Below are positions 3,390 to 53,928 of a stretch of DNA of 59,500 bases, piece by piece. Source of the DNA: a virus. Both the position numbers and the translations under genes were made by a program. The notes beneath the pieces were generated by a model. It had not been told where the DNA came from. It was given only the letters and a program-made list of their open reading frames with translations, and did no database searches. Position 1 is the stretch's first letter; the number at the start of each line of letters is the position of its first letter. The stretch lies in the UHGV virus genome UHGV-0209830, one strand, 5' to 3'.

Positions 3390-4211
3390 TTAATAATGGT
3401 TAGCCATCCATTCAGATCTAATTGATGGGATAAACTCTCTATTGAGAAAGGGGACGTACAGTGTGGTTGTCACATCTGCACCCTCCTTAGCGTTTTTGCA
3501 ATGTTGCGGAGGCAGGATCAGTCGGCTTGAGCCTCTCTCAATAGACATTTTCAGGCCGTGGCGTAGGTCTTTTTGCATAAGCTGTATGCGAGCCACAAGC
3601 GGGGTAAATTCGGTTTCAAGCGCCATGCTTTCAATGATGTCAAAGCGTCGGTTAGCGGCCTGCGTGAAGTCCTCCGGATCGTCTTCAAGCGCCGTGCATA
3701 AAGCGAGTTCAGCAATTCGCATCCGTGCTACGCCAGCACTGTATTCGGGAGTTTTCATATCAGGAAGTGACGCTCGCATTCGTTCAAGGAGTTCCGCGCC
3801 TTTCCCGGTTAATGGTTTAAGTATCCAGTCAGTTGGTACTCCATTTACTGGTACGTTGGTTTTCACGTAAGGAGGTACAGTGAGTATTTCTACTGTTTGG
3901 GCCAGGTCGCTCAGGTTAATATCTGCATGATGCGTATTACCGCAGTGACTGCACTCATAGGAGTAGGTCATTACTGCATCGGGGCGCGAATTAACAAATA
4001 TCCACCAAAGAGCAGTTCTGCGGTCCTGAACTGTCCAGTTAGCACTGTCGTTAATTTCACCATCCTGCATAGAGTTAAGGTACTCTGTAGTCGTTGCCTC
4101 ATCTTCTGCCGGGTTCAGGTCAGAATATTTCAGCGCATCCTTCACGGTAGGGGCGTGGAACTGAATTTCTGTCTCAGGATGGGAAGGCAATGGGAATTTT
4201 GGAATGTTCAA
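3390..4211 (-). CDS. Hypothetical protein (273 aa)
   Basis: ORF track; TTG start as listed; between replicon and large virion gene. Confidence 0.5.
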   Translation of the reverse strand: MNIPKFPLPSHPETEIQFHAPTVKDALKYSDLNPAEDEATTTEYLNSMQDGEINDSANWTVQDRRTALWWIFVNSRPDAVMTYSYECSHCGNTHHADINLSDLAQTVEILTVPPYVKTNVPVNGVPTDWILKPLTGKGAELLERMRASLPDMKTPEYSAGVARMRIAELALCTALEDDPEDFTQAANRRFDIIESMALETEFTPLVARIQLMQKDLRHGLKMSIERGSSRLILPPQHCKNAKEGADVTTTLYVPFLNREFIPSIRSEWMANHY

Positions 4212-4339
4212 TTATTCCTCCGAAAAGCAGGTATCTGTTCATTTTCCAGAGGATAGGGAGTGTGTGATTTGCGATGGGGATTGAATGAAGATCTTTGCCG
4301 GTCGAGAAGCGATTATTGAGGGTGATTTTTACACCTTAA

Positions 4340-4450
4340 GTGACGCTACTCACATATCCACAGAGTATTTTTATAAACCTTTTTCCATTTTTAATCCTTT
4401 TTAGATCCTTTTTAGGCGTCGCTGGAGCCAGTAGTGGCGCGGGCTGTAGA
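4340..4450. promoter_or_regulatory. AT-rich origin region with DnaA-box-like atatccaca upstream of iterons
   Basis: AT-rich run with ccttttta repeats and 8/9 match to TTATNCACA immediately upstream of iteron array. Confidence 0.4.
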
Positions 4451-4457
4451 GGAGGCT

Positions 4458-4575
4458 GGTGTAAGATTTGCCCTCAATTAAATACGATCGGTGTAAGATT
4501 TGCCCTCAGAAGGTGTAAGATTTGCCCTCAAAAGGTGTAGTAATTGCCCTCAAAGTGGTGTAAAAATTGCCCTCA
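4458..4575. repeat. Origin iterons: five 19-bp direct repeats ggtgtaagatttgccctca (and variants) at about 22-32 bp phasing
   Basis: Copies near 4458, 4490, 4512, 4534, 4557 directly upstream of rep gene. Confidence 0.85.
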
Positions 4576-4599
4576 CCATTTGAAGGATCACACAGGGTT

Positions 4600-5355
4600 A
4601 TGAACAGAGCGGAATTAACAGCAAAAGCCGTCAGCCTGATTGAGTCAGCGACACCTATTAGTCGTAGTCTGGCACAAGCCAATGAGATCACGGAGGCTGC
4701 TTATCACCTGACTCGCGACCAAAAGCGACTGTTGTTTATTGTGGTGGGAAGACTTCGCTATGCTTCTAAGGATGGCGTTCTTGGTTCAGGTGCCTGTGAG
4801 TTGACGGTCAACGAATATGCAGAGATGTATAATTTGCCCTCTGCTGAAGCCAGCAAGGATATTCGTAAGGCCATTTCAGGGCTTAGCGAGAAGAAAGTTA
4901 CGATATATAACCCTGATGAATCGACCGAATCAGAAGACAGTTATGAGTCTTATCCCTGGATGATTAAGGATGCCTATTCACCACGGCGCGGGACTTACAT
5001 TATTCATCTTAATCCATATCTCATGCCGTTTTTTACTCTGCTTGATAAGAGATTCACAAGGCTGAATTTTACCGAAGTATCTCGCCTTACAAATCCTTAT
5101 TCTATGCGGCTTTATGAGTCCTTATGCCAGTACAGGAAGGATGATGGAAGCGGCTTTGCCATACTTGGCGTCGAATGGATGCGGGAGCGTTATGGGTTAC
5201 CAAAAAGCTATCAGCGGTATGCCGAATTTAAGAGAAGTTTTTTAACGAAGGCTGTAGCAGAGATTGAAAAAAATACAAAAATGAAAATAGTCTTCTCAGA
5301 GGTGACGGAAGGCGGCAAAGTTACCAGGATAAAATTTACCTATCAGCAGTCTTAA
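4600..5355 (+). CDS. repE: Replication initiator, F RepE-like (iteron-binding Rep)
   Basis: Recalled F RepE motifs conserved: EAAY..RDQKR, SAEASKDIR, ESYPWMIK, NPYLMPFF, NPYSMRLYESLCQYRK, LPKSYQRY; track ORF starts 4567 but ATG MNRAEL at 4600 lies after last iteron. Confidence 0.85.
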   Translation: MNRAELTAKAVSLIESATPISRSLAQANEITEAAYHLTRDQKRLLFIVVGRLRYASKDGVLGSGACELTVNEYAEMYNLPSAEASKDIRKAISGLSEKKVTIYNPDESTESEDSYESYPWMIKDAYSPRRGTYIIHLNPYLMPFFTLLDKRFTRLNFTEVSRLTNPYSMRLYESLCQYRKDDGSGFAILGVEWMRERYGLPKSYQRYAEFKRSFLTKAVAEIEKNTKMKIVFSEVTEGGKVTRIKFTYQQS

Positions 5356-5647
5356 GGGCAATTTTTACACCCCTCTCAAGGTGTAGAATTTGCCCTTAAC
5401 GATCGGCAATTGAGGGTAATTTTTACATCTTAATTGCATGTATCTTGTTATTAGCAAGTTGTGTTTTTATATAACGTATTGATATGTAAGGATTATGTAA
5501 AAATCGCCCTCAACCAATATCGTGCGTATCGTGCATTCTTATTGCGCTTTTTTATTATCATTCACTGTGTTAACTGATTGATATTATTGAAATATGTAAA
5601 GAATGCCTTCATTGCTGATGGATTGATGATGTAAAAAATGCCCTCAA
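5353..5647. repeat. Downstream iteron-like repeats in both orientations (incC-like copy-control array)
   Basis: taagggcaatttttacacc, ggtgtagaatttgccctta, tgagggtaatttttacatc, atgtaaaaatcgccctca, gatgtaaaaaatgccctca interspersed with AT-rich DNA. Confidence 0.7.
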
Positions 5648-5736
5648 CATTGCGCTACCTTCCCTACCCGCTATCGTTGAGGTCGTGGGTGCTGACGGGA
5701 AATGAGCAACCCTCCAGCACACATAATTAAAGCTAT

Positions 5737-6444
5737 TCAGAATTTGATCACTCCACTCACAGCCCCCTTTAACGCGCTTGTAGCCATGCCAGCGGCACCG
5801 TTGACCAAAGCAGAAACACCTGAGCCTGCGGATGTGTATTTCTGGAAAGTGATTGGATATGACAAGAACTCTGACACCTGGTCTCGTGAGCGGGTGATTT
5901 CCCCAAGTTGAGTGGGGAATACGCGCATTTCCTCTTCCAGTTCTTTACCGCCATCCTGAGTTACCCGGTAGAGCCGGATCTTCATTAGATATTCAGGAGG
6001 AAGGTTTATTGTTCCGTCCGGGTTTGTCACGCGGGAACGACGCTCTTTGAACCAGTTCATGATCTTGCCGTCTTCGGTATCCCTTACGGTCATCGTGACT
6101 GGTCCGGCGGTGACGTAGGTTGGCTTGCTGAACTCTACGCTACCTATCACCTTGTTTTCTGTCTCGATATTTCCGCTGCTGTAGGTGATATCCTTCACGA
6201 ACATATCGAAACCGTTCAGACCGTCCACTTCAACCGTCCACTGCCATCCCTGGGCGTAACGAATACGCATAGCGGCAGCAACAATATTTTTCCCGTAGGC
6301 AATATCGCTGCTGTAGTTCCCACTTACCCCGCCGCCGGATATTGCTTTATCCAGAATGTCGCTAATGAGGTTGCTGGTGAATGATTTTGTGTTAAATGAC
6401 AGTGCGGTGGTCAACGTTCTGCCAACGCTGCTGAAAATACTCAC
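5737..6444 (-). CDS. Hypothetical tail-associated protein (235 aa)
   Basis: ORF track; co-oriented in tail gene block. Confidence 0.45.
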   Translation of the reverse strand: MSIFSSVGRTLTTALSFNTKSFTSNLISDILDKAISGGGVSGNYSSDIAYGKNIVAAAMRIRYAQGWQWTVEVDGLNGFDMFVKDITYSSGNIETENKVIGSVEFSKPTYVTAGPVTMTVRDTEDGKIMNWFKERRSRVTNPDGTINLPPEYLMKIRLYRVTQDGGKELEEEMRVFPTQLGEITRSRDQVSEFLSYPITFQKYTSAGSGVSALVNGAAGMATSALKGAVSGVIKF

Positions 6445-6459
6445 TCTGCGCCTCCAGCG

Positions 6460-7020
6460 TTAAAAAATGGTAGCCCCCGGAATAATCGCCCGGTTTGAGG
6501 ACATTTTTTCTTCAATCTCCTGAACGCGGGCATATAACGTGGCTTCATCAGGTAGATCTGAGTAGTCAAATTTCCCGTCGATGGACGCTCGACGCTGGCG
6601 GGCGACATTTCTGACATTGATAAGCGCCTCCAGGTATTCTTCCAACATACCAATGATTGCAGGCGGCACTTGCCATTCGTCCAGTTTTCTGTCGCGGAGA
6701 TTAACCAGATACAGCATCCGAAAAGGCCATCGTTCTGAACCTGTCAGCTCTAATTCAATAAAGCCGGATAGTTCATCCGAATAGACCAAAAGGCCATTGC
6801 TGTCGGTGACGTGAACAAGGGATAGATAATCTTCCGGCAATGGGATTGCGGTGCCACCAGCTTTTTCGAGTTTTAGTGTCTTCACTACCCCGGCCCTGTC
6901 CTGATACGTGGTCAGCGCTTTAATCAGGAAGGCTTTCAGCGTGTCTTCTTCACGCACAAGCAGTGGGTTAAATCGCGTTTTAACGCTTTCTAATAATTCG
7001 GTTGGTGTCATCGTAGCCAC
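6460..7020 (-). CDS. Hypothetical tail-associated protein (186 aa)
   Basis: ORF track; tail gene block. Confidence 0.45.
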   Translation of the reverse strand: MATMTPTELLESVKTRFNPLLVREEDTLKAFLIKALTTYQDRAGVVKTLKLEKAGGTAIPLPEDYLSLVHVTDSNGLLVYSDELSGFIELELTGSERWPFRMLYLVNLRDRKLDEWQVPPAIIGMLEEYLEALINVRNVARQRRASIDGKFDYSDLPDEATLYARVQEIEEKMSSNRAIIPGATIF

Positions 7021-15800: not shown

Positions 15801-15894
15801 CTCCTTTTTATCTCTTTTGGTGTGGATTTTTGGGTGCTTCTCTTTTAAAATTGCATTTTGGTTCTCAAATGTGTCTCAGAAGTGGAGCAAGAAG

Positions 15895-16851
15895 ATGCGC
15901 ATTTTTATCGATGATGGTTCAACCAATATCAAAATGCTGTGGGAGCACGACGGGGAAACTCGCACTCACATCAGCCCTAACAGCTTTAAGCGCGGATGGT
16001 CAGCAACATTTGGTGCTGGCAAGCCGTTTAACTATGTCATTGACGACGAAAAGTATTCGTATGATTTGATCTCGCCAGATGTTCTGCCGACGAATAACGT
16101 GGAATGGCAATACAGCCCGCTTAACGTCCTGGCTGTTCACCATGCCCTGCTGACAAGTGGCATTGAGCCGCAGGAAGTAGAAATTGTGGTCACGCTGCCT
16201 CTGGCGGAGTTTTACGACGACGACGCGCAATACAATCTCGATAACATCGAGCGCAAGAAAGCCAGTCTTATGCGCCCCGTCACGCTGAATAAAGGCAATG
16301 TGTTCACGATTAAGAAAGTTACGGTACGACCGGAGTCTATTCCGGCAGGAATTGGCCTGTGCGACAATCTGAACCCTGCCCATTCTGTTCTTATCGTCGA
16401 TTTGGGTGGAACTACCCTTGATGTTTCAATGGTCGCCGGGCAAATGACGGCAGTTTCCCGTGTTTTTGGCGATTCGAATCTTGGTGTATCACTGGTCACC
16501 AGGGAAGTAAGGCAAGCACTTGCAAGGGCCAATACCGAAACGTCAAATTACAATGTCGATCAGCTCATTATTAACCGCCACGATGAAGATTATCTGAACG
16601 ACAATATCAATGACCCATCAGCGATTGATGATGTGAAAAAGGCCATTGCCGCAAGCATTGACCGTTTGTGTACCCGCGTTCTTGATGTGATTGGCGACTT
16701 TAAAGGATATACGCATGTCATGGTGATCGGTGGTGGCGCACCGCTGGTGGCAGATGCAATTCGCGAGCAAGTTAATATTCGTGATGACCGTTTCTTCGTG
16801 GCGGATGACCCGCAACTTGCTCTTGTTCATGGCCTGAAAGCAATCGGTTAA
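15895..16851 (+). CDS. parM: ParM/StbA actin-like plasmid segregation ATPase
   Basis: Strong similarity to recalled R1 ParM (FIDDGSTNIK, HISPNSFK, ESIPAG, DLGGTTLD, GYTHVMVIGGGA); ATG at 15895 with RBS, track ORF over-extended upstream. Confidence 0.9.
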   Translation: MRIFIDDGSTNIKMLWEHDGETRTHISPNSFKRGWSATFGAGKPFNYVIDDEKYSYDLISPDVLPTNNVEWQYSPLNVLAVHHALLTSGIEPQEVEIVVTLPLAEFYDDDAQYNLDNIERKKASLMRPVTLNKGNVFTIKKVTVRPESIPAGIGLCDNLNPAHSVLIVDLGGTTLDVSMVAGQMTAVSRVFGDSNLGVSLVTREVRQALARANTETSNYNVDQLIINRHDEDYLNDNINDPSAIDDVKKAIAASIDRLCTRVLDVIGDFKGYTHVMVIGGGAPLVADAIREQVNIRDDRFFVADDPQLALVHGLKAIG

Positions 16852-16858
16852 CGAGGTA

Positions 16859-17203
16859 ATGTCCATGTCTCAGGAACGTAAGAAAGTGATGATTTATCTT
16901 CGCCCAGAGGCTTATGCCAATGAAAAGGCGGCGAGCGAGAAGATAAAAAAACATAGCGATATGGCAAGAACCGCATTGTTGGCAGGGCTTGCGCTGGGAG
17001 AAGTCGATAGCAGGCTTCCAGGATTACTGGCTTCCCTGCTGACCGAAGATAATAATCCGGAGCTGATCCGAAAAATGCTGGCATCCTTCCTGGAACTACC
17101 AGCTGCGGCTGAGGAGCGCCCTGCCTCCATTGAGCCAGCGAAGGAGCAAGTTGTTGCCAAAAGCGCGTCGGCGCGCAATCTGGCTGACTCTCTACCTGAT
17201 TGA
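16859..17203 (+). CDS. parR: ParR-like centromere-binding adaptor
   Basis: Small protein immediately after parM; RHH-like N-terminus; stop followed by terminator. Confidence 0.6.
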   Translation: MSMSQERKKVMIYLRPEAYANEKAASEKIKKHSDMARTALLAGLALGEVDSRLPGLLASLLTEDNNPELIRKMLASFLELPAAAEERPASIEPAKEQVVAKSASARNLADSLPD

Positions 17204-17221
17204 CAGAAGATGTGCTGGTTT

Positions 17222-17250
17222 AAGGCTGCAAATTGCAGCCTTTTTTATGC
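17222..17250 (+). terminator. Rho-independent terminator after parR
   Basis: ggctgcaaattgcagcc hairpin followed by tttttt. Confidence 0.7.
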
Positions 17251-17254
17251 CTTA

Positions 17255-17345
17255 ATGGTGCCTAATTGGTGTTAATCTGGCACCAGTTAGGTGCTGTTAT
17301 GGTGCAGTTTTGTATCTGGTTCCAATTTGGGGCTGATTTCGTGTT
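17255..17345. repeat. Centromere/operator-like repeat cluster upstream of parA (ggtgc, ggcacc, ggttccaatttgg, gtgttaaaca)
   Basis: Multiple short direct and inverted repeats between parR terminator and parA start. Confidence 0.4.
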
Positions 17346-17490
17346 AAACAGGATGCAATATAAGGTGTATTTGGTCTGATTGATGTTATACTTTGCCAAA
17401 CATTCATGACTCCATTATAGAGCCTGTCCCGCATCAAAAAGGCTCTTATCTGGAACCGTTTTGATACCAAAATCACACCGAGGAACGGAT

Positions 17491-18132
17491 ATGATTATAT
17501 TGGTAGCCAGCCAAAAAGGTGGCTGTGGCAAATCAACCACCAGCGTAAATATTTGTGCGGAGCTTGCCCGCGCAAATAAGGACGTAGTTCTACTTGATGC
17601 AGATAAGCAAGGAACATCTGCCCGTTGGGCATCGGACCGTAATGCGGCAGAGGTTTCTCCAGTAATTCATTGCGTCCAGAAGTTTGGGAATATTCGTGAA
17701 ACACTTCTTGATCTGGACAAGCGTTATGAATTTGTGGTTGTTGATACCGCTGGTCGTGATAGCAAAGAAATGCGCACCGGTATTACTGCGGCGGATGTTT
17801 TGCTTGTTCCATTCAGGCCATCTCAGCCAGATTTAGACACTCTGGCGCATTTTGTTGAAGTCTTTGAAGAGGCTTTGGATCTGATGCCTAATCCTAGCAT
17901 TAAGGCGTGCGCAGTCTTAACAATGGCCCCATCCAATCCGGTTGTGAATGAAGCCAATGAGGCCAAAGAGTACCTGGCTGAATATCCGCAACTGAAGTTG
18001 CTGAAAACCATCATTCGCGATCGCAAGGTTTACCGCGATTGTATGGCTGAAGGGAAGGGCGTTGTTGAGATGGACAACGGGAAAGCTAAAGGTGAAATCC
18101 AGATGTTGGTTAAGGAGTTATTAAGTGATTAA
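17491..18132 (+). CDS. parA: Small ParA-family partition ATPase (type Ib, ParF-like)
   Basis: Deviant Walker A KGGCGKST near N-terminus, about 213 aa from ATG at 17491 with RBS gaggaa. Confidence 0.85.
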   Translation: MIILVASQKGGCGKSTTSVNICAELARANKDVVLLDADKQGTSARWASDRNAAEVSPVIHCVQKFGNIRETLLDLDKRYEFVVVDTAGRDSKEMRTGITAADVLLVPFRPSQPDLDTLAHFVEVFEEALDLMPNPSIKACAVLTMAPSNPVVNEANEAKEYLAEYPQLKLLKTIIRDRKVYRDCMAEGKGVVEMDNGKAKGEIQMLVKELLSD

Positions 18133-18412
18133 GCCTCGTAAATCGGTAAAAGCCCCCGAAGTAAAAGACCTCGATCTTGAACGCCGAATTGAGGCTTTTG
18201 CCAGCAAAGCTGATTTGGTGCCGGGTGAGCAACCAGAAGACAACAAAGTGCTCGATAAGGACGCCCCACGTGATTTTAAATCCATTCGTGTTGGCTTCAA
18301 TGAATACGAGTACCAGGTACTTGATGCGTTAAGCAAAAAGCATAATCGCAGCAAATTGAATATGATCCGCCATGCTATCCTCATGTTAGCGGAGTCTGAG
18401 GAAGCAAAATAA
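18125..18412 (+). CDS. ParG-like small centromere-binding partner
   Basis: 95 aa, GTG start overlapping parA stop, helical C-terminal RHH-like region. Confidence 0.55.
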   Translation: MIKPRKSVKAPEVKDLDLERRIEAFASKADLVPGEQPEDNKVLDKDAPRDFKSIRVGFNEYEYQVLDALSKKHNRSKLNMIRHAILMLAESEEAK

Positions 18413-18680
18413 AGTCTTTCAGGGTGGTTTTAGAACTTAAAAAATCTTGAACCAAAGATGCACCAATACACTACTAATTTGGTGCACCTTTACATCCTTT
18501 TTGGTTCCAATTGTGTACCATTTGTCATTAATTTACTTATGCGCAAAAGTGGGCTTCATGAAAAAGCTCATTATTGAAATAACGATAGAAAGCAATTTCT
18601 AATCAACTAGTGGTTGTCAGCCTATTCGGCTTATAAGATCATACGCTGTTATACGTTTTTTACGCTTTGAGGAATCCACA

Positions 18681-20342
18681 ATGAGTGAGGCAGAAGCCCG
18701 CCCGACTAACTTTATTCGTCAGATCATCGATGAAGATCTGGCAAGTGGTAAGCACACCACAGTACATACCCGTTTCCCGCCGGAACCGAATGGCTATCTG
18801 CATATTGGTCATGCGAAATCTATCTGCCTGAACTTCGGGATCGCCCAGGACTATAAAGGCCAGTGCAACCTGCGTTTCGACGACACTAACCCGGTAAAAG
18901 AAGATATCGAGTACGTCGAGTCGATTAAAAACGACGTTGAATGGTTAGGTTTTCACTGGTCTGGTAACGTCCGTTACTCCTCCGATTATTTTGATCAGCT
19001 CCACGCCTATGCTGTTGAACTGATCAACAAAGGCCTGGCGTATGTTGACGAACTGACGCCGGAACAGATCCGCGAATACCGCGGCACCCTGACGCAGCCG
19101 GGTAAAAACAGCCCGTACCGCGATCGCAGCGTTGAAGAGAACCTGGCGCTGTTCGAAAAAATGCGTGCCGGTGGTTTTGAAGAAGGTAAAGCCTGCCTGC
19201 GTGCGAAAATCGACATGGCGTCGCCGTTTATCGTGATGCGCGATCCGGTGCTGTACCGCATTAAGTTTGCTGAACACCACCAGACTGGCAACAAGTGGTG
19301 CATCTACCCGATGTACGACTTCACCCACTGCATCAGCGATGCGCTGGAAGGTATTACGCACTCTCTGTGTACGCTTGAGTTCCAGGACAACCGTCGCCTG
19401 TACGACTGGGTGCTGGACAACATCACCATTCCTGTTCACCCGCGCCAGTACGAATTCTCGCGCCTGAATCTGGAATACACTGTGATGTCCAAGCGTAAGC
19501 TGAACCTGCTGGTGACCGACAAGCACGTTGAAGGCTGGGATGACCCGCGTATGCCGACCATTTCCGGTCTGCGTCGTCGTGGTTACACTGCGGCTTCTAT
19601 TCGTGAGTTCTGCAAACGCATCGGCGTGACCAAGCAGGACAACACCATTGAGATGGCGTCGCTGGAATCCTGCATCCGTGAAGATCTCAACGAAAACGCC
19701 CCGCGCGCAATGGCGGTTATCGATCCGGTGAAACTGGTTATCGAAAACTATCAGGGCGAAGGTGAAATGGTCACCATGCCGAACCATCCGAACAAACCGG
19801 AAATGGGTAGCCGCCAGGTGCCGTTTAGCGGTGAGATTTGGATCGATCGCGCCGATTTCCGCGAAGAAGCTAACAAGCAGTACAAACGTCTGGTGCTGGG
19901 TAAAGAAGTGCGTCTGCGTAATGCTTACGTCATTAAGGCAGAACGCGTCGAGAAAGATGCCGAAGGTAATATCACCACCATCTTCTGTACTTATGACGCC
20001 GACACCTTAAGCAAAGATCCGGCTGATGGTCGTAAAGTCAAAGGTGTTATTCACTGGGTGAGCGCGGCACATGCGCTGCCGGTTGAAATCCGTTTGTATG
20101 ACCGTCTGTTCAGCGTGCCTAACCCAGGTGCTGCGGATGATTTCCTGTCGGTGATTAACCCGGAATCGCTGGTGATCAAACAGGGCTTTGCTGAACCGTC
20201 GCTGAAAGATGCGGTTGCGGGTAAAGCATTCCAGTTTGAGCGTGAAGGTTATTTCTGCCTCGACAGCCGCCATTCCACGGCGGAAAAACCGGTATTTAAC
20301 CGCACCGTTGGGCTGCGTGATACCTGGGCGAAGTTAGGTTAA
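18681..20342 (+). CDS. glnS: Glutaminyl-tRNA synthetase
   Basis: Near-identical to recalled E. coli GlnRS; HIGH motif and VMSKR present; own leader and terminator. Confidence 0.97.
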
Positions 20343-20365
20343 TAGGTATTTCGCCACATAAAAAA

Positions 20366-20393
20366 GTAAACGCCGCTACTGCGGCGTTTTTTA
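20366..20393. terminator. Bidirectional rho-independent terminator between glnS and dam
   Basis: aaacgccgc-tact-gcggcgttt hairpin flanked by A-run and T-run. Confidence 0.75.
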
Positions 20394-21296
20394 CTTCATT
20401 ATTGCAATTATATCGTTAGCAACTACACGTGTTGACGCCTTGCAGGAAACCGACCGTCTGGCTGCCATATGATGTACTTTAAACCCGTTTCCTTCATATA
20501 GTTCACGGATGCTTGGCGCACCACTATTTGTAATCACTACCTTAGCGCCGCGCTGGTGGGCTTCCACCAATAGAGATACCAGCCGTTTCTGTTCGTCGAA
20601 ACGGAAGCTATTTCCTGAATAACTGGTAAACCCTTCTGTATCCGGCAGCGGTTCATACGGCGGATCGCAAAAAATCACATCGCCTTCACCAGCCGCCTCG
20701 ATGACGCCAGCAAAGTCACCTGATACAAAGGACGTGTTTTTGAGTACGTCATCAGCCAAAAATGCCTCCATCTCTGCATGTGGGAAGTAGGGCGCTTTGT
20801 ATTTGCCATACCCCACGTTGAACTCGCCATTTTGGTTGTACCGCGTTACGCCATTAAAACAGTGCCGATTAAGGTACAAAAAGGCGGCAGCATGATGTAG
20901 CTGGTCATACTTTCCTCTGTTAAATGCCTCACGCACTTCGAGGTAACCGTCAGCGTTGTTGTAATTTTGGAAAAAACTATATGACAGCGTGACGAGCGAA
21001 TGTCCTTCTCGCTGCAATGTCTGATAGAAGTTAATCAGGTCACCGTTAATATCATTAAGCAGGTTGTGGCGAAATCCTGCATTCGTAAATACAGAACCGC
21101 CACCAACGAACGGTTCTATTAACCGCTTGCCGTGTGGTAGATGCTCAAGCACTGTAGGCAACTCTGAGAATTTACCGCCTACCCATTTGAAGATCGGACG
21201 CTCATATTCATCCGGAGTCCGAATGGTGCGCATATAGCTAATTTCAGCCATCGTATCCTGTTTTTCTATGGCTATGCTTGCTATAGATTTACTCAT
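20391..21296 (-). CDS. dam: DNA adenine (N6) methyltransferase, Dam family
   Basis: KWVGGK, FVGGGSVF and DPPY motifs; track ORF 20391..21392 trimmed to MSKS start just after the upstream stop. Confidence 0.9.
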   Translation of the reverse strand: MSKSIASIAIEKQDTMAEISYMRTIRTPDEYERPIFKWVGGKFSELPTVLEHLPHGKRLIEPFVGGGSVFTNAGFRHNLLNDINGDLINFYQTLQREGHSLVTLSYSFFQNYNNADGYLEVREAFNRGKYDQLHHAAAFLYLNRHCFNGVTRYNQNGEFNVGYGKYKAPYFPHAEMEAFLADDVLKNTSFVSGDFAGVIEAAGEGDVIFCDPPYEPLPDTEGFTSYSGNSFRFDEQKRLVSLLVEAHQRGAKVVITNSGAPSIRELYEGNGFKVHHMAARRSVSCKASTRVVANDIIAIMK

Positions 21297-21969
21297 AGAG
21301 CACCCCCTTATTCGCTTCGAAAACTGCCTTTGCGAATCCATGTGGAGTAGCACTTCGAAAATTAGCCCTGTCAGGCCCTGGTGGCGCGGCATGGATTCTG
21401 TTATCTGGCTTGCCTAATGATTCGTCCATTAGGGCATCAGGCATGACAAAGCCCTGGCCGCTCCAGAGGCATGTTTTTTTGGTGTAGTTATCTTCCTGAC
21501 AATATGCAGTGAAGAAGTAAGGGTGAAAGATGTGATCTGGCTTACGCCAGAATGTCGATATTTTGCTGACCGGATTTTCAATCATGTACGGACAACCGAT
21601 CATCTTTGCAATGTCATAACACTGCCAGACAACCTGCATTGCTTTGAACTGGAAAACCGGATCTTTATTAGCCTTGTCCGAAAACCAGCGCGCGCCGGAA
21701 ACAGCCAGGTCAGTACACGGTGGGAACCCGGCCAGAAACACGATGCGCTGCAAATTCTTACGGAGAAAAGCGTATACTTCATCGCTATCGATGATCGCAC
21801 TAATACGCGTCAGAACGGCACCTGATTGCATCCGCTCGTCACTGGTCGATAAGTGCTGTGGATCGACGATAGCGGCATCGACACCGTATTCCAGCCAGGG
21901 GGCAACCATTGCCCCCGTAAAATCACACAGACTCACAACAAGCGGTCGGTTATTATCGTTCTGCTTCAC
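21289..21969 (-). CDS. Cytosine-C5 methyltransferase-like protein
   Basis: GFPPC motif (C5-MTase motif IV-like); track start overlaps rdgC and is probably over-extended; start uncertain. Confidence 0.55.
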   Translation of the reverse strand: MKQNDNNRPLVVSLCDFTGAMVAPWLEYGVDAAIVDPQHLSTSDERMQSGAVLTRISAIIDSDEVYAFLRKNLQRIVFLAGFPPCTDLAVSGARWFSDKANKDPVFQFKAMQVVWQCYDIAKMIGCPYMIENPVSKISTFWRKPDHIFHPYFFTAYCQEDNYTKKTCLWSGQGFVMPDALMDESLGKPDNRIHAAPPGPDRANFRSATPHGFAKAVFEANKGVLYE

Positions 21970-53841: not shown

Positions 53842-53928
53842 TGGCGGAGAGTAATGGAATCGAACCATCATCGCTTGCGCAATGGGACGGTTTTCAAGAC
53901 CGCTTGAGCACCATGCTCCCTACTCTCC
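53842..53928 (-). tRNA. Atypical type-II tRNA-like gene with TGA anticodon (tRNA-Ser(UGA)-like)
   Basis: 87 nt; acceptor GGAGAGT/ACTCTCC, G discriminator, CCA, T-loop TTCGATT, anticodon loop CTTGAAA; D-arm shortened and variable arm irregular. Confidence 0.45.

Follow-up and report, generated by a model that had tools for sequence, protein, structure and literature searches.

Why should a plasmid-prophage carry a complete copy of an essential gene of its host? The question is raised by glnS, the gene for glutaminyl-tRNA synthetase (GlnRS), found at positions 18413-20393 of a stretch of 59,500 nucleotides (nt) from the virus genome UHGV-0209830, called here the window. The stretch belongs to a plasmid-prophage that is related to P1 and falls into the phage D6 family. 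Essential housekeeping genes are rare on phages or plasmids. By computation we established the integrity of this gene, the limits of its capture, its single origin, the selection and recombination that act on it and its distribution. We think it probable that the D6-family cassette stems from one capture and encodes a nearly wild-type GlnRS, kept by selection because it raises the dosage of, or provides a back-up for, an enzyme essential to translation. The cassette comprises the following features:

18413-18592, plus strand: cassette-specific upstream spacer, non-chromosomal, found only on D6-like plasmids
18593-18680, plus strand: native glnS promoter and 5' untranslated region (5'UTR), based on the alignment with the K-12 upstream region, which begins at about 18593-18613, and on a promoter scan
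18614-18619, plus strand: -35 hexamer TTGTCA, from the promoter scan, with a 17-nt spacer to the -10 hexamer
18637-18642, plus strand: -10 hexamer GATCAT of a predicted sigma-70 promoter, from the promoter scan
18637-18640, plus strand: Dam site GATC inside the -10 hexamer, from the GATC positions
18669-18674, plus strand: Shine-Dalgarno sequence GAGGAA within the 5'UTR
18681-20342, plus strand: glnS coding sequence, 553 amino acids (aa), a glutaminyl-tRNA synthetase by profile, domain, structure and K-12 comparison
20343-20390, no strand assigned: 3' spacer with a bidirectional intrinsic terminator, matched by the terminator scan on both strands

A preliminary description of the locus, made from the letters alone, had proposed an intact, host-type glnS carried as phage-plasmid cargo, and this is borne out. 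The product is of Escherichia type and identical to GlnRS of E. coli K-12 at 551 of 553 positions (99.6%). It matches the NCBIfam model TIGR00440 (glnS) over positions 1-524 of 524 with 1068.9 bits, against a curated equivalog cut-off of 425.8. All three Pfam domains of glutaminyl- and glutamyl-tRNA synthetases (PF00749, PF03950 and PF20974) are present, with the class I catalytic domain and both anticodon-binding beta-barrel domains. The HIGH motif lies at residues 41-44, a KMSKS-type motif (VMSKR) at residues 268-272, and solved E. coli GlnRS chains, such as 1o0b, are matched end to end. Residue by residue, the sole differences from the K-12 enzyme are I112V, V552L and the loss of the last residue, E554; the C-terminus reads ...AKLG-stop in the window and ...AKVGE-stop in the chromosomal protein. 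The change I112V is conservative, Val112 being the native residue in Citrobacter. The plasmid alleles show the amino acid changes V97I, Q106K, I112V and D510E, besides a few singletons; those that recur are conservative or mild. From this degree of identity, the plasmid enzyme would be expected to charge tRNA-Gln and to act as the host GlnRS does.

The same comparison bears on the idea, put forward in the preliminary description, that the locus shows the classic resistance arrangement, in which a second synthetase protects against an inhibitor or toxin that targets GlnRS. Where a mobile element bears a duplicate synthetase, this is often a resistance gene, and gene dosage alone might conceivably protect. 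However, the protein has 551 of its 553 residues in common with the housekeeping enzyme, which is sensitive, and internally differs from it by the conservative I112V alone; being essentially wild type, it does not support a resistant target. Neither toxin nor biosynthetic genes were found in the neighbourhood of the cassette, which consists of partition, methylase, rdgC and tail genes. Resistance by target modification thus appears largely refuted, and we regard protection by the second synthetase in any form as very improbable.

The cassette is firmly placed on a plasmid backbone. In PLSDB, 97 plasmids about 90 kilobases (kb) in size, whose hosts are E. coli, Shigella and Salmonella, cover the 4.1 kb around glnS completely and with 97-100% identity. 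Escherichia phage D6 shows 97.3% nucleotide identity over the same 4.1 kb, with the gene annotated as orf62, glutaminyl-tRNA synthetase. Plasmid NZ_CP173462.1, from a urinary E. coli, matches window positions 18300-20500 at 100%. Gene order at the locus is the same in the window, in D6 (orf60-orf65) and in NZ_CP173462.1: on a P1-related, D6-type backbone, the cassette has the partition genes parA-orf61 on one side and dam, convergent with it, on the other. Around 17 IMG/VR contigs also carry it. An assembly chimera, or a mis-joined chromosomal segment, is refuted: the same junctions recur in at least 97 independent plasmid assemblies, in phage D6 and in IMG/VR contigs, the flanks were chromosomal in 0/5426 complete E. 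coli genomes, and we found no point in favour of such an artefact, to which we give practically no credence. We likewise rejected the idea that homology at glnS had let the element integrate into the chromosome, as neither orf61 nor the upstream spacer was chromosomal in any of the 5426 genomes.

Megablast against complete E. coli chromosomes placed the start of the chromosomal homology at 18593-18613 and its end at 20332-20338; by eye, the right end may reach about 20345, through the old stop codon. The captured fragment is 1.75 kb long and runs from 88 nt upstream of the ATG to the stop codon. Over this segment the chromosomes are 96.5-97.5% identical to the window in the rows sampled; identity of 99% or more was seen in nine of 5517 matching records, at least seven of which are D6-like plasmids. 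On either side the alignment to the chromosome breaks off abruptly, with phage-plasmid genes for flanks, and nagE and chiP, the neighbours of chromosomal glnS, are absent from the element. The GC (guanine plus cytosine) content of positions 19001-20000, 54% against about 47% around them, fits a chromosomal origin. Relatives that lack glnS cease to match the window at 18413 and match it again from about 20391, so that positions 18413-20393, as first delimited, are exactly the cassette, which stands in place of a short spacer in those relatives.

Since the capture begins 88 nt before the ATG, the native promoter was brought along. Its counterpart in K-12 is known to be derepressed by loss of dam as well as by mutation of its Dam sites (Plumbridge and Soll 1987, as cited in PMC11741368), and glnS increases by 1.08 log2 in a dam deletion (PMC11741368). 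At the other end, a terminator stem-loop at 20368-20389, with an A-run before and a T-run after it, lies between the stop codons of glnS (20342) and dam (20391). This hairpin is common to the two convergent genes and is not the terminator of chromosomal glnS; the K-12 sequence downstream of glnS is unrelated to the window. It is also conserved in D6 and in the plasmids pZ1323HEC0010-2 (pZ1323, from E. coli) and pEF-4 (from E. fergusonii). A leader of its own and a bidirectional terminator, both anticipated in the preliminary description, were therefore recovered as the native promoter with its 5'UTR and as a hairpin detected on both strands. A search for known RNA elements at the glnS locus returned just sub-threshold, terminator-like Rfam matches. 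In pEF-4, 12 nt are missing before the shared terminator, and its GlnRS (554 aa) ends in ...AKVEG (6745-6760), a third variant of the C-terminus beside ...AKVGE and ...AKLG.

Upstream of the captured fragment, the 180-nt spacer (18413-18592) was present in 75 of 5426 complete E. coli genomes and at no chromosomal place; it had no match outside D6-like plasmids that would indicate its origin. Compared with the spacer of the glnS-less relatives it showed no significant similarity (p=0.09 on the left, p=0.25 on the right). Just after orf61 it contains a 13-nt inverted repeat, AAAGATGCACCAA / TTGGTGCACCTTT, at 18454-18466 / 18479-18491, accompanied by TGCACC..ACA direct repeats; D6 and pZ1323 have kept the inverted repeat, whereas in pEF-4 it is degenerate. 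The repeat and spacer may serve to terminate the parA-orf61 operon or to bind a protein. Relative to the window, the pEF-4 spacer is 60% identical and that of pZ1323 87%, against 91-95% for the adjoining promoter. A 14-codon open reading frame (ORF), MKKLIIEITIESNF, at 18559-18603 on the plus strand, ends at the start of the chromosomal homology; it is kept in D6 and pZ1323, not in pEF-4, and is probably due to chance.

Was glnS captured once or repeatedly? We aligned 12 plasmid alleles with 6 E. coli chromosomal alleles and with those of E. ruysiae, Salmonella and Citrobacter. Among the plasmid alleles, three came from Salmonella hosts, one from the backbone-divergent pZ1323 and one from pEF-4. 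All plasmid copies aligned have the left junction and a homologous upstream spacer in common; the spacer, the onset of chromosomal homology 88 nt before the ATG and the terminator hairpin were recovered in alignments with D6, eight further plasmids, pZ1323 and pEF-4. The common junction and spacer, present even in the very divergent pEF-4, therefore indicate a single capture, an old one, from an Escherichia chromosome. All plasmid alleles are of Escherichia type, differing by 31-91 nt from the E. coli alleles, and those residing in Salmonella, about 250 nt away from Salmonella glnS, are still so. The plasmid and chromosomal copies can be told apart by 36-50 single-nucleotide differences. Eighteen sites part most plasmid alleles from all sampled E. 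coli chromosomes, most of them within the first 370 nt, and at 15 of the 18 the plasmid state is shared with an outgroup; the 5' part of the gene thus branches outside the sampled E. coli alleles.

The alleles are mosaic in structure. That of D6 is of plasmid type up to about nt 800-1000 and of K-12/O157 type beyond, and the allele of CP081308 holds a chromosome-type tract at about nt 250-900 (maximum chi-square 30-43, p=0.0005 for both alleles). The 3' part of the window and CP029365 alleles is CT01-like, and 511 of 1711 informative site pairs among the plasmid alleles failed the four-gamete test. The comparison of the window with pEF-4 points the same way, as conservation steps sharply at the edge of the chromosomal homology: identity is 60% in the upstream spacer, 91.5% in the promoter and 5'UTR and 95.5% in the glnS coding sequence, where synonymous divergence (dS) is 0.22, against a dS of 0.94 in parA and saturated synonymous sites in rdgC. 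Recurrent gene conversion between the plasmid and chromosomal glnS is the simplest account of these data. A mobile element and the chromosome thus exchange sequence inside an essential gene, and alleles may flow by way of the plasmid copy.

Such exchange raises the possibility that glnS is a neutral passenger, of no benefit to the element, that frequent conversion from the chromosome keeps intact and host-like. The clear mosaicism with chromosomal alleles agrees with this, as does the far better conservation of the chromosome-homologous segment than of its immediate flanks; the cassette is also missing in a minority of otherwise similar plasmids, and a few copies may be frameshifted (glnS is unannotated in CP042632.1 and NZ_CP027382.1). 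The pattern of substitution speaks against it. The ratio of non-synonymous to synonymous substitution rates (dN/dS) was 0.006-0.03 in all pairs, plasmid-plasmid and plasmid-chromosome. States seen only in plasmid alleles were synonymous in 51 cases and non-synonymous in 8, and plasmid-private singletons in 22 and 4, roughly the reverse of the neutral expectation, although some of these "private" states could be imports from unsampled chromosomal alleles. We conclude that the plasmid gene is under strong purifying selection and is kept functional. Moreover, the 5' 560 nt retain plasmid-signature single-nucleotide polymorphisms that conversion has not erased, nearly all of them synonymous; the copies are intact in Salmonella hosts, whose chromosomal gene, about 15% divergent, is a poor conversion donor; and the cassette is kept across backbone divergence that saturates synonymous sites. 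A neutral passenger is for these reasons an improbable explanation.

The distribution of the cassette tells how far the element depends on it. D6-type orf61 was found in 92 of 5426 complete E. coli genomes, always plasmid-borne; 70-75 of these 92 D6-like plasmids carry the glnS cassette and 17-22, about a fifth, do not. In pPSS-08-1_2 (NZ_AP027678.1) and A3176 unnamed2, orf61 is followed directly by dam, with a spacer of about 140 nt that has its own terminator. These two empty spacers differ considerably from each other, and S. dysenteriae plasmids have a third variant; since the empty spacers have diverged into distinct types, the empty state is old and not a recent deletion. The statement in PMC6799933 that glnS occurs in all D6-like genomes therefore does not hold for the larger current set. 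Natural relatives with and without glnS thus exist for direct comparison, and the family keeps the gene across E. coli, Shigella, Salmonella and E. fergusonii hosts. In one glnS-less plasmid, NZ_JBWKMP010000003.1, dam is split by an IS3-family insertion (4419-6573).

Concerning the host copy, at most about 7 of the 5426 genomes, by counting, had no match to glnS on the chromosome. By this bound, 90% or so of the carriers, if not more, must retain chromosomal glnS. The chromosome of strain 98228 (NZ_CP173463.1), host of the plasmid identical to the window, is not colinear with K-12: the hya/app genes lie at 3.99 Mb (megabases) and nuo/lrhA at 4.33 Mb, which suggests a large rearrangement or an assembly issue.

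These figures matter for another explanation, plasmid maintenance, according to which the element, or the additional GlnRS itself, reduces the expression of chromosomal glnS, so that cells come to depend on the plasmid copy and suffer once the plasmid is lost. Plasmid pBT1 of Salmonella is a precedent: its cysS is required, and chromosomal cysS is down-regulated without sequence change (PMC6333337). Such a role was also proposed for D6-like glnS by the authors of PMC6799933, and conservation under purifying selection would agree with it. On the other hand, the element already has two partition systems as well as toxin-antitoxin modules, about a fifth of the D6-like plasmids do without glnS, the chromosomal copy is kept in nearly all genomes and its ongoing conversion shows that both copies coexist, and no mechanism for silencing chromosomal glnS is visible in the sequence. 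Silencing of the pBT1 type would leave no trace in the sequence; we hold this explanation to be unlikely, if worth keeping in mind.

We return to a selected supply of GlnRS, which we favour. An ancestor of the D6-like elements would have taken up an Escherichia promoter-to-stop fragment once, landing in the orf61-dam intergenic region, and a plasmid terminator would now end the glnS transcript. The gene is most likely transcribed alone from its native sigma-70 promoter, which is about two-fold Dam-repressed in K-12; with a sigma-70 promoter of its own, expression in the lysogen should be independent of phage repression. The lysogen would thereby have extra GlnRS, and the gene dosage would rise steeply during lytic replication. 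Purifying selection would hold the plasmid copy functional and repeated gene conversion would keep it in concerted evolution with the host gene, the element benefiting from a dosage or back-up supply of GlnRS rather than from an inhibitor-resistant variant. The level of expression, and extra GlnRS as the benefit under selection, are our best guess. That the element's own dam gene, adjoining a Dam-sensitive promoter, matters in this is speculation.

Several observations weigh against this account. The persistence of 17-22 of the 92 D6-like plasmids without glnS means that the gene is dispensable for the element. Part of the low dN/dS could come from gene conversion importing chromosomal variation already filtered by selection. 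A scan of the window revealed no C1-operator-like site that would tie glnS to the lytic switch (the P1 C1 operator consensus had no match at three or fewer mismatches). Lastly, the glutamine content of the element's ORFs, 3.7% with a CAG share of 0.61, is ordinary. A special glutamine demand of the element was ruled out by this content. On a bolder reading, the cassette might be a pBT1-like dependence device, by which the lysogen comes to need the plasmid glnS, or a phage back-up against an attack on glutaminyl-tRNA charging, by the host or a competitor, that is raised on under-methylated replicating phage DNA by way of the Dam-sensitive promoter, with the element's own dam gene adjacent; we consider this unlikely. 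If either were true, the phage-plasmid would also shuttle essential-gene alleles between Escherichia lineages by gene conversion.

It had also been suggested that the synthetase supports translation jointly with tRNAs that the element itself encodes. Four tRNA genes are indeed present on the element. However, they are specific for Met(cat), Ser(tga), Thr(tgt) and Asn(gtt), with no tRNA-Gln among them, and glutamine use is not elevated; the suggestion is thus unsupported and has in our judgement hardly any likelihood. The tRNA-Ser(tga) at 53842-53928 on the minus strand is an ARAGORN call, and the Rfam tRNA model at its gathering threshold gives only Met, Thr and Asn; the long variable arm, scoring lower, may be why tRNA-Ser is missed.

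The genes flanking the cassette are as follows:

17491-18132, plus strand: left flank, ParA-type partition ATPase (NCBIfam NF041546 ParA_partition and Pfam ParA/MinD-type ATPase domains; D6_60)
18125-18412, plus strand: left flank, small orf61-like gene of the phage-plasmid backbone (D6_61 annotation)
20391-21296, minus strand: right flank, Dam-family adenine methyltransferase (TIGR00571 dam, 247.7 bits; equals D6 orf63)
21289-21969, minus strand: unclassified ORF between dam and rdgC, a "putative DNA-cytosine methylase" in phage D6
21953-22858, beyond dam and the unclassified ORF: rdgC (PF04381 RdgC; the three right-flank genes, from dam to rdgC, are D6_63 to D6_65 in D6)

The location first given for glnS, between partition operons and a dam/dcm/rdgC operon, is correct for partition, dam and rdgC; the dcm label is unsupported here, as the ORF at 21289-21969 had no Pfam or NCBIfam match at E<=0.001. 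The ParA match to NF041546 (E=2.1e-46, 158 bits) falls under the 180-bit cut-off of that model. Two distinct partition modules, ParM/StbA-StbB and ParA-orf61, are adjacent at 15817-18412, directly upstream of glnS. In some pairs of D6-like plasmids parA is much more divergent than rdgC and in others the reverse is true, and this flip in order indicates module shuffling in the D6-like backbone. For NZ_CP173462.1, the identical plasmid, the NCBI pipeline lists dam as a pseudogene with an incomplete N-terminus. However, the ORF covers 264 of the 267 positions of the Dam family model TIGR00571, and a comparison with P1 Dmt, a longer fusion protein, probably gave rise to the flag.

The presence of glnS on D6 was reportedly described by Gilcrease and Casjens in 2018, and its occurrence on D6 and D6-like plasmid prophages, reported in 2018-2019, was already known. 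In PMC6799933 the gene is treated as a moron of D6-like elements that may contribute to fitness or maintenance; we found no functional follow-up on D6-family glnS in the later literature. Our analysis adds the limits of the capture, the retained Dam-sensitive promoter, the single origin, the purifying selection, the gene conversion and the glnS-less relatives. As a search of related phage-plasmids confirmed, D6 orf62 and the glnS of D6-like prophages (e.g. pYU39_89), like that of the 97 PLSDB plasmids, are the same insertion as in the window: the same gene at the same locus between orf61 and dam, with the same junctions. Compared with D6, the window allele is another mosaic, without the D6 substitutions V97I, Q106K and L466Q and with a 3' part that resembles another E. 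coli chromosomal lineage.

Translation cargo is known in other phages, such as the tRNA genes of P1-family phages and the synthetases of large phages, and the window, with its four tRNA genes, resembles these in carrying phage-borne parts of the translation apparatus. A 159-kb viral contig of IMG/VR, IMGVR_UViG_3300023174_006137, encodes at 3983-5566 a GlnRS of 527 aa, 48% identical to our query, whose neighbours mostly have no Pfam or PHROG match (one gave a weak DUF559 match); this is apparently an independent phage-borne enzyme. In contrast to that gene, set among phage-specific ORFs, the D6-family gene looks recent, is host-identical and has a host promoter. One further viral record with an 85% identical glnS was rejected as a carrier, as it is a chromosomal flank beside fimbrial genes.

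Second synthetases are also found on plasmids, as in the case of MupA/IleRS2, which confers mupirocin resistance, and of AgnB2, the leucyl-tRNA synthetase of pAgK84, which provides self-immunity. These enzymes are divergent from the housekeeping ones and insensitive to a known inhibitor, and some are linked to genes for inhibitor biosynthesis. The D6-type GlnRS, in contrast, is neither divergent nor linked to genes for toxin or antibiotic biosynthesis. A parallel in arrangement is cysS of pBT1 in Salmonella Typhimurium D23580 (PMC6333337), where a housekeeping synthetase is likewise duplicated on a large low-copy element and the chromosomal copy is intact. The pBT1 gene shows 79% nucleotide and 89% amino acid identity to its chromosomal counterpart, and its requirement was shown experimentally (PMC6333337), whereas D6-type glnS shows about 97% nucleotide and 99.6% amino acid identity and recombines with the chromosomal copy.

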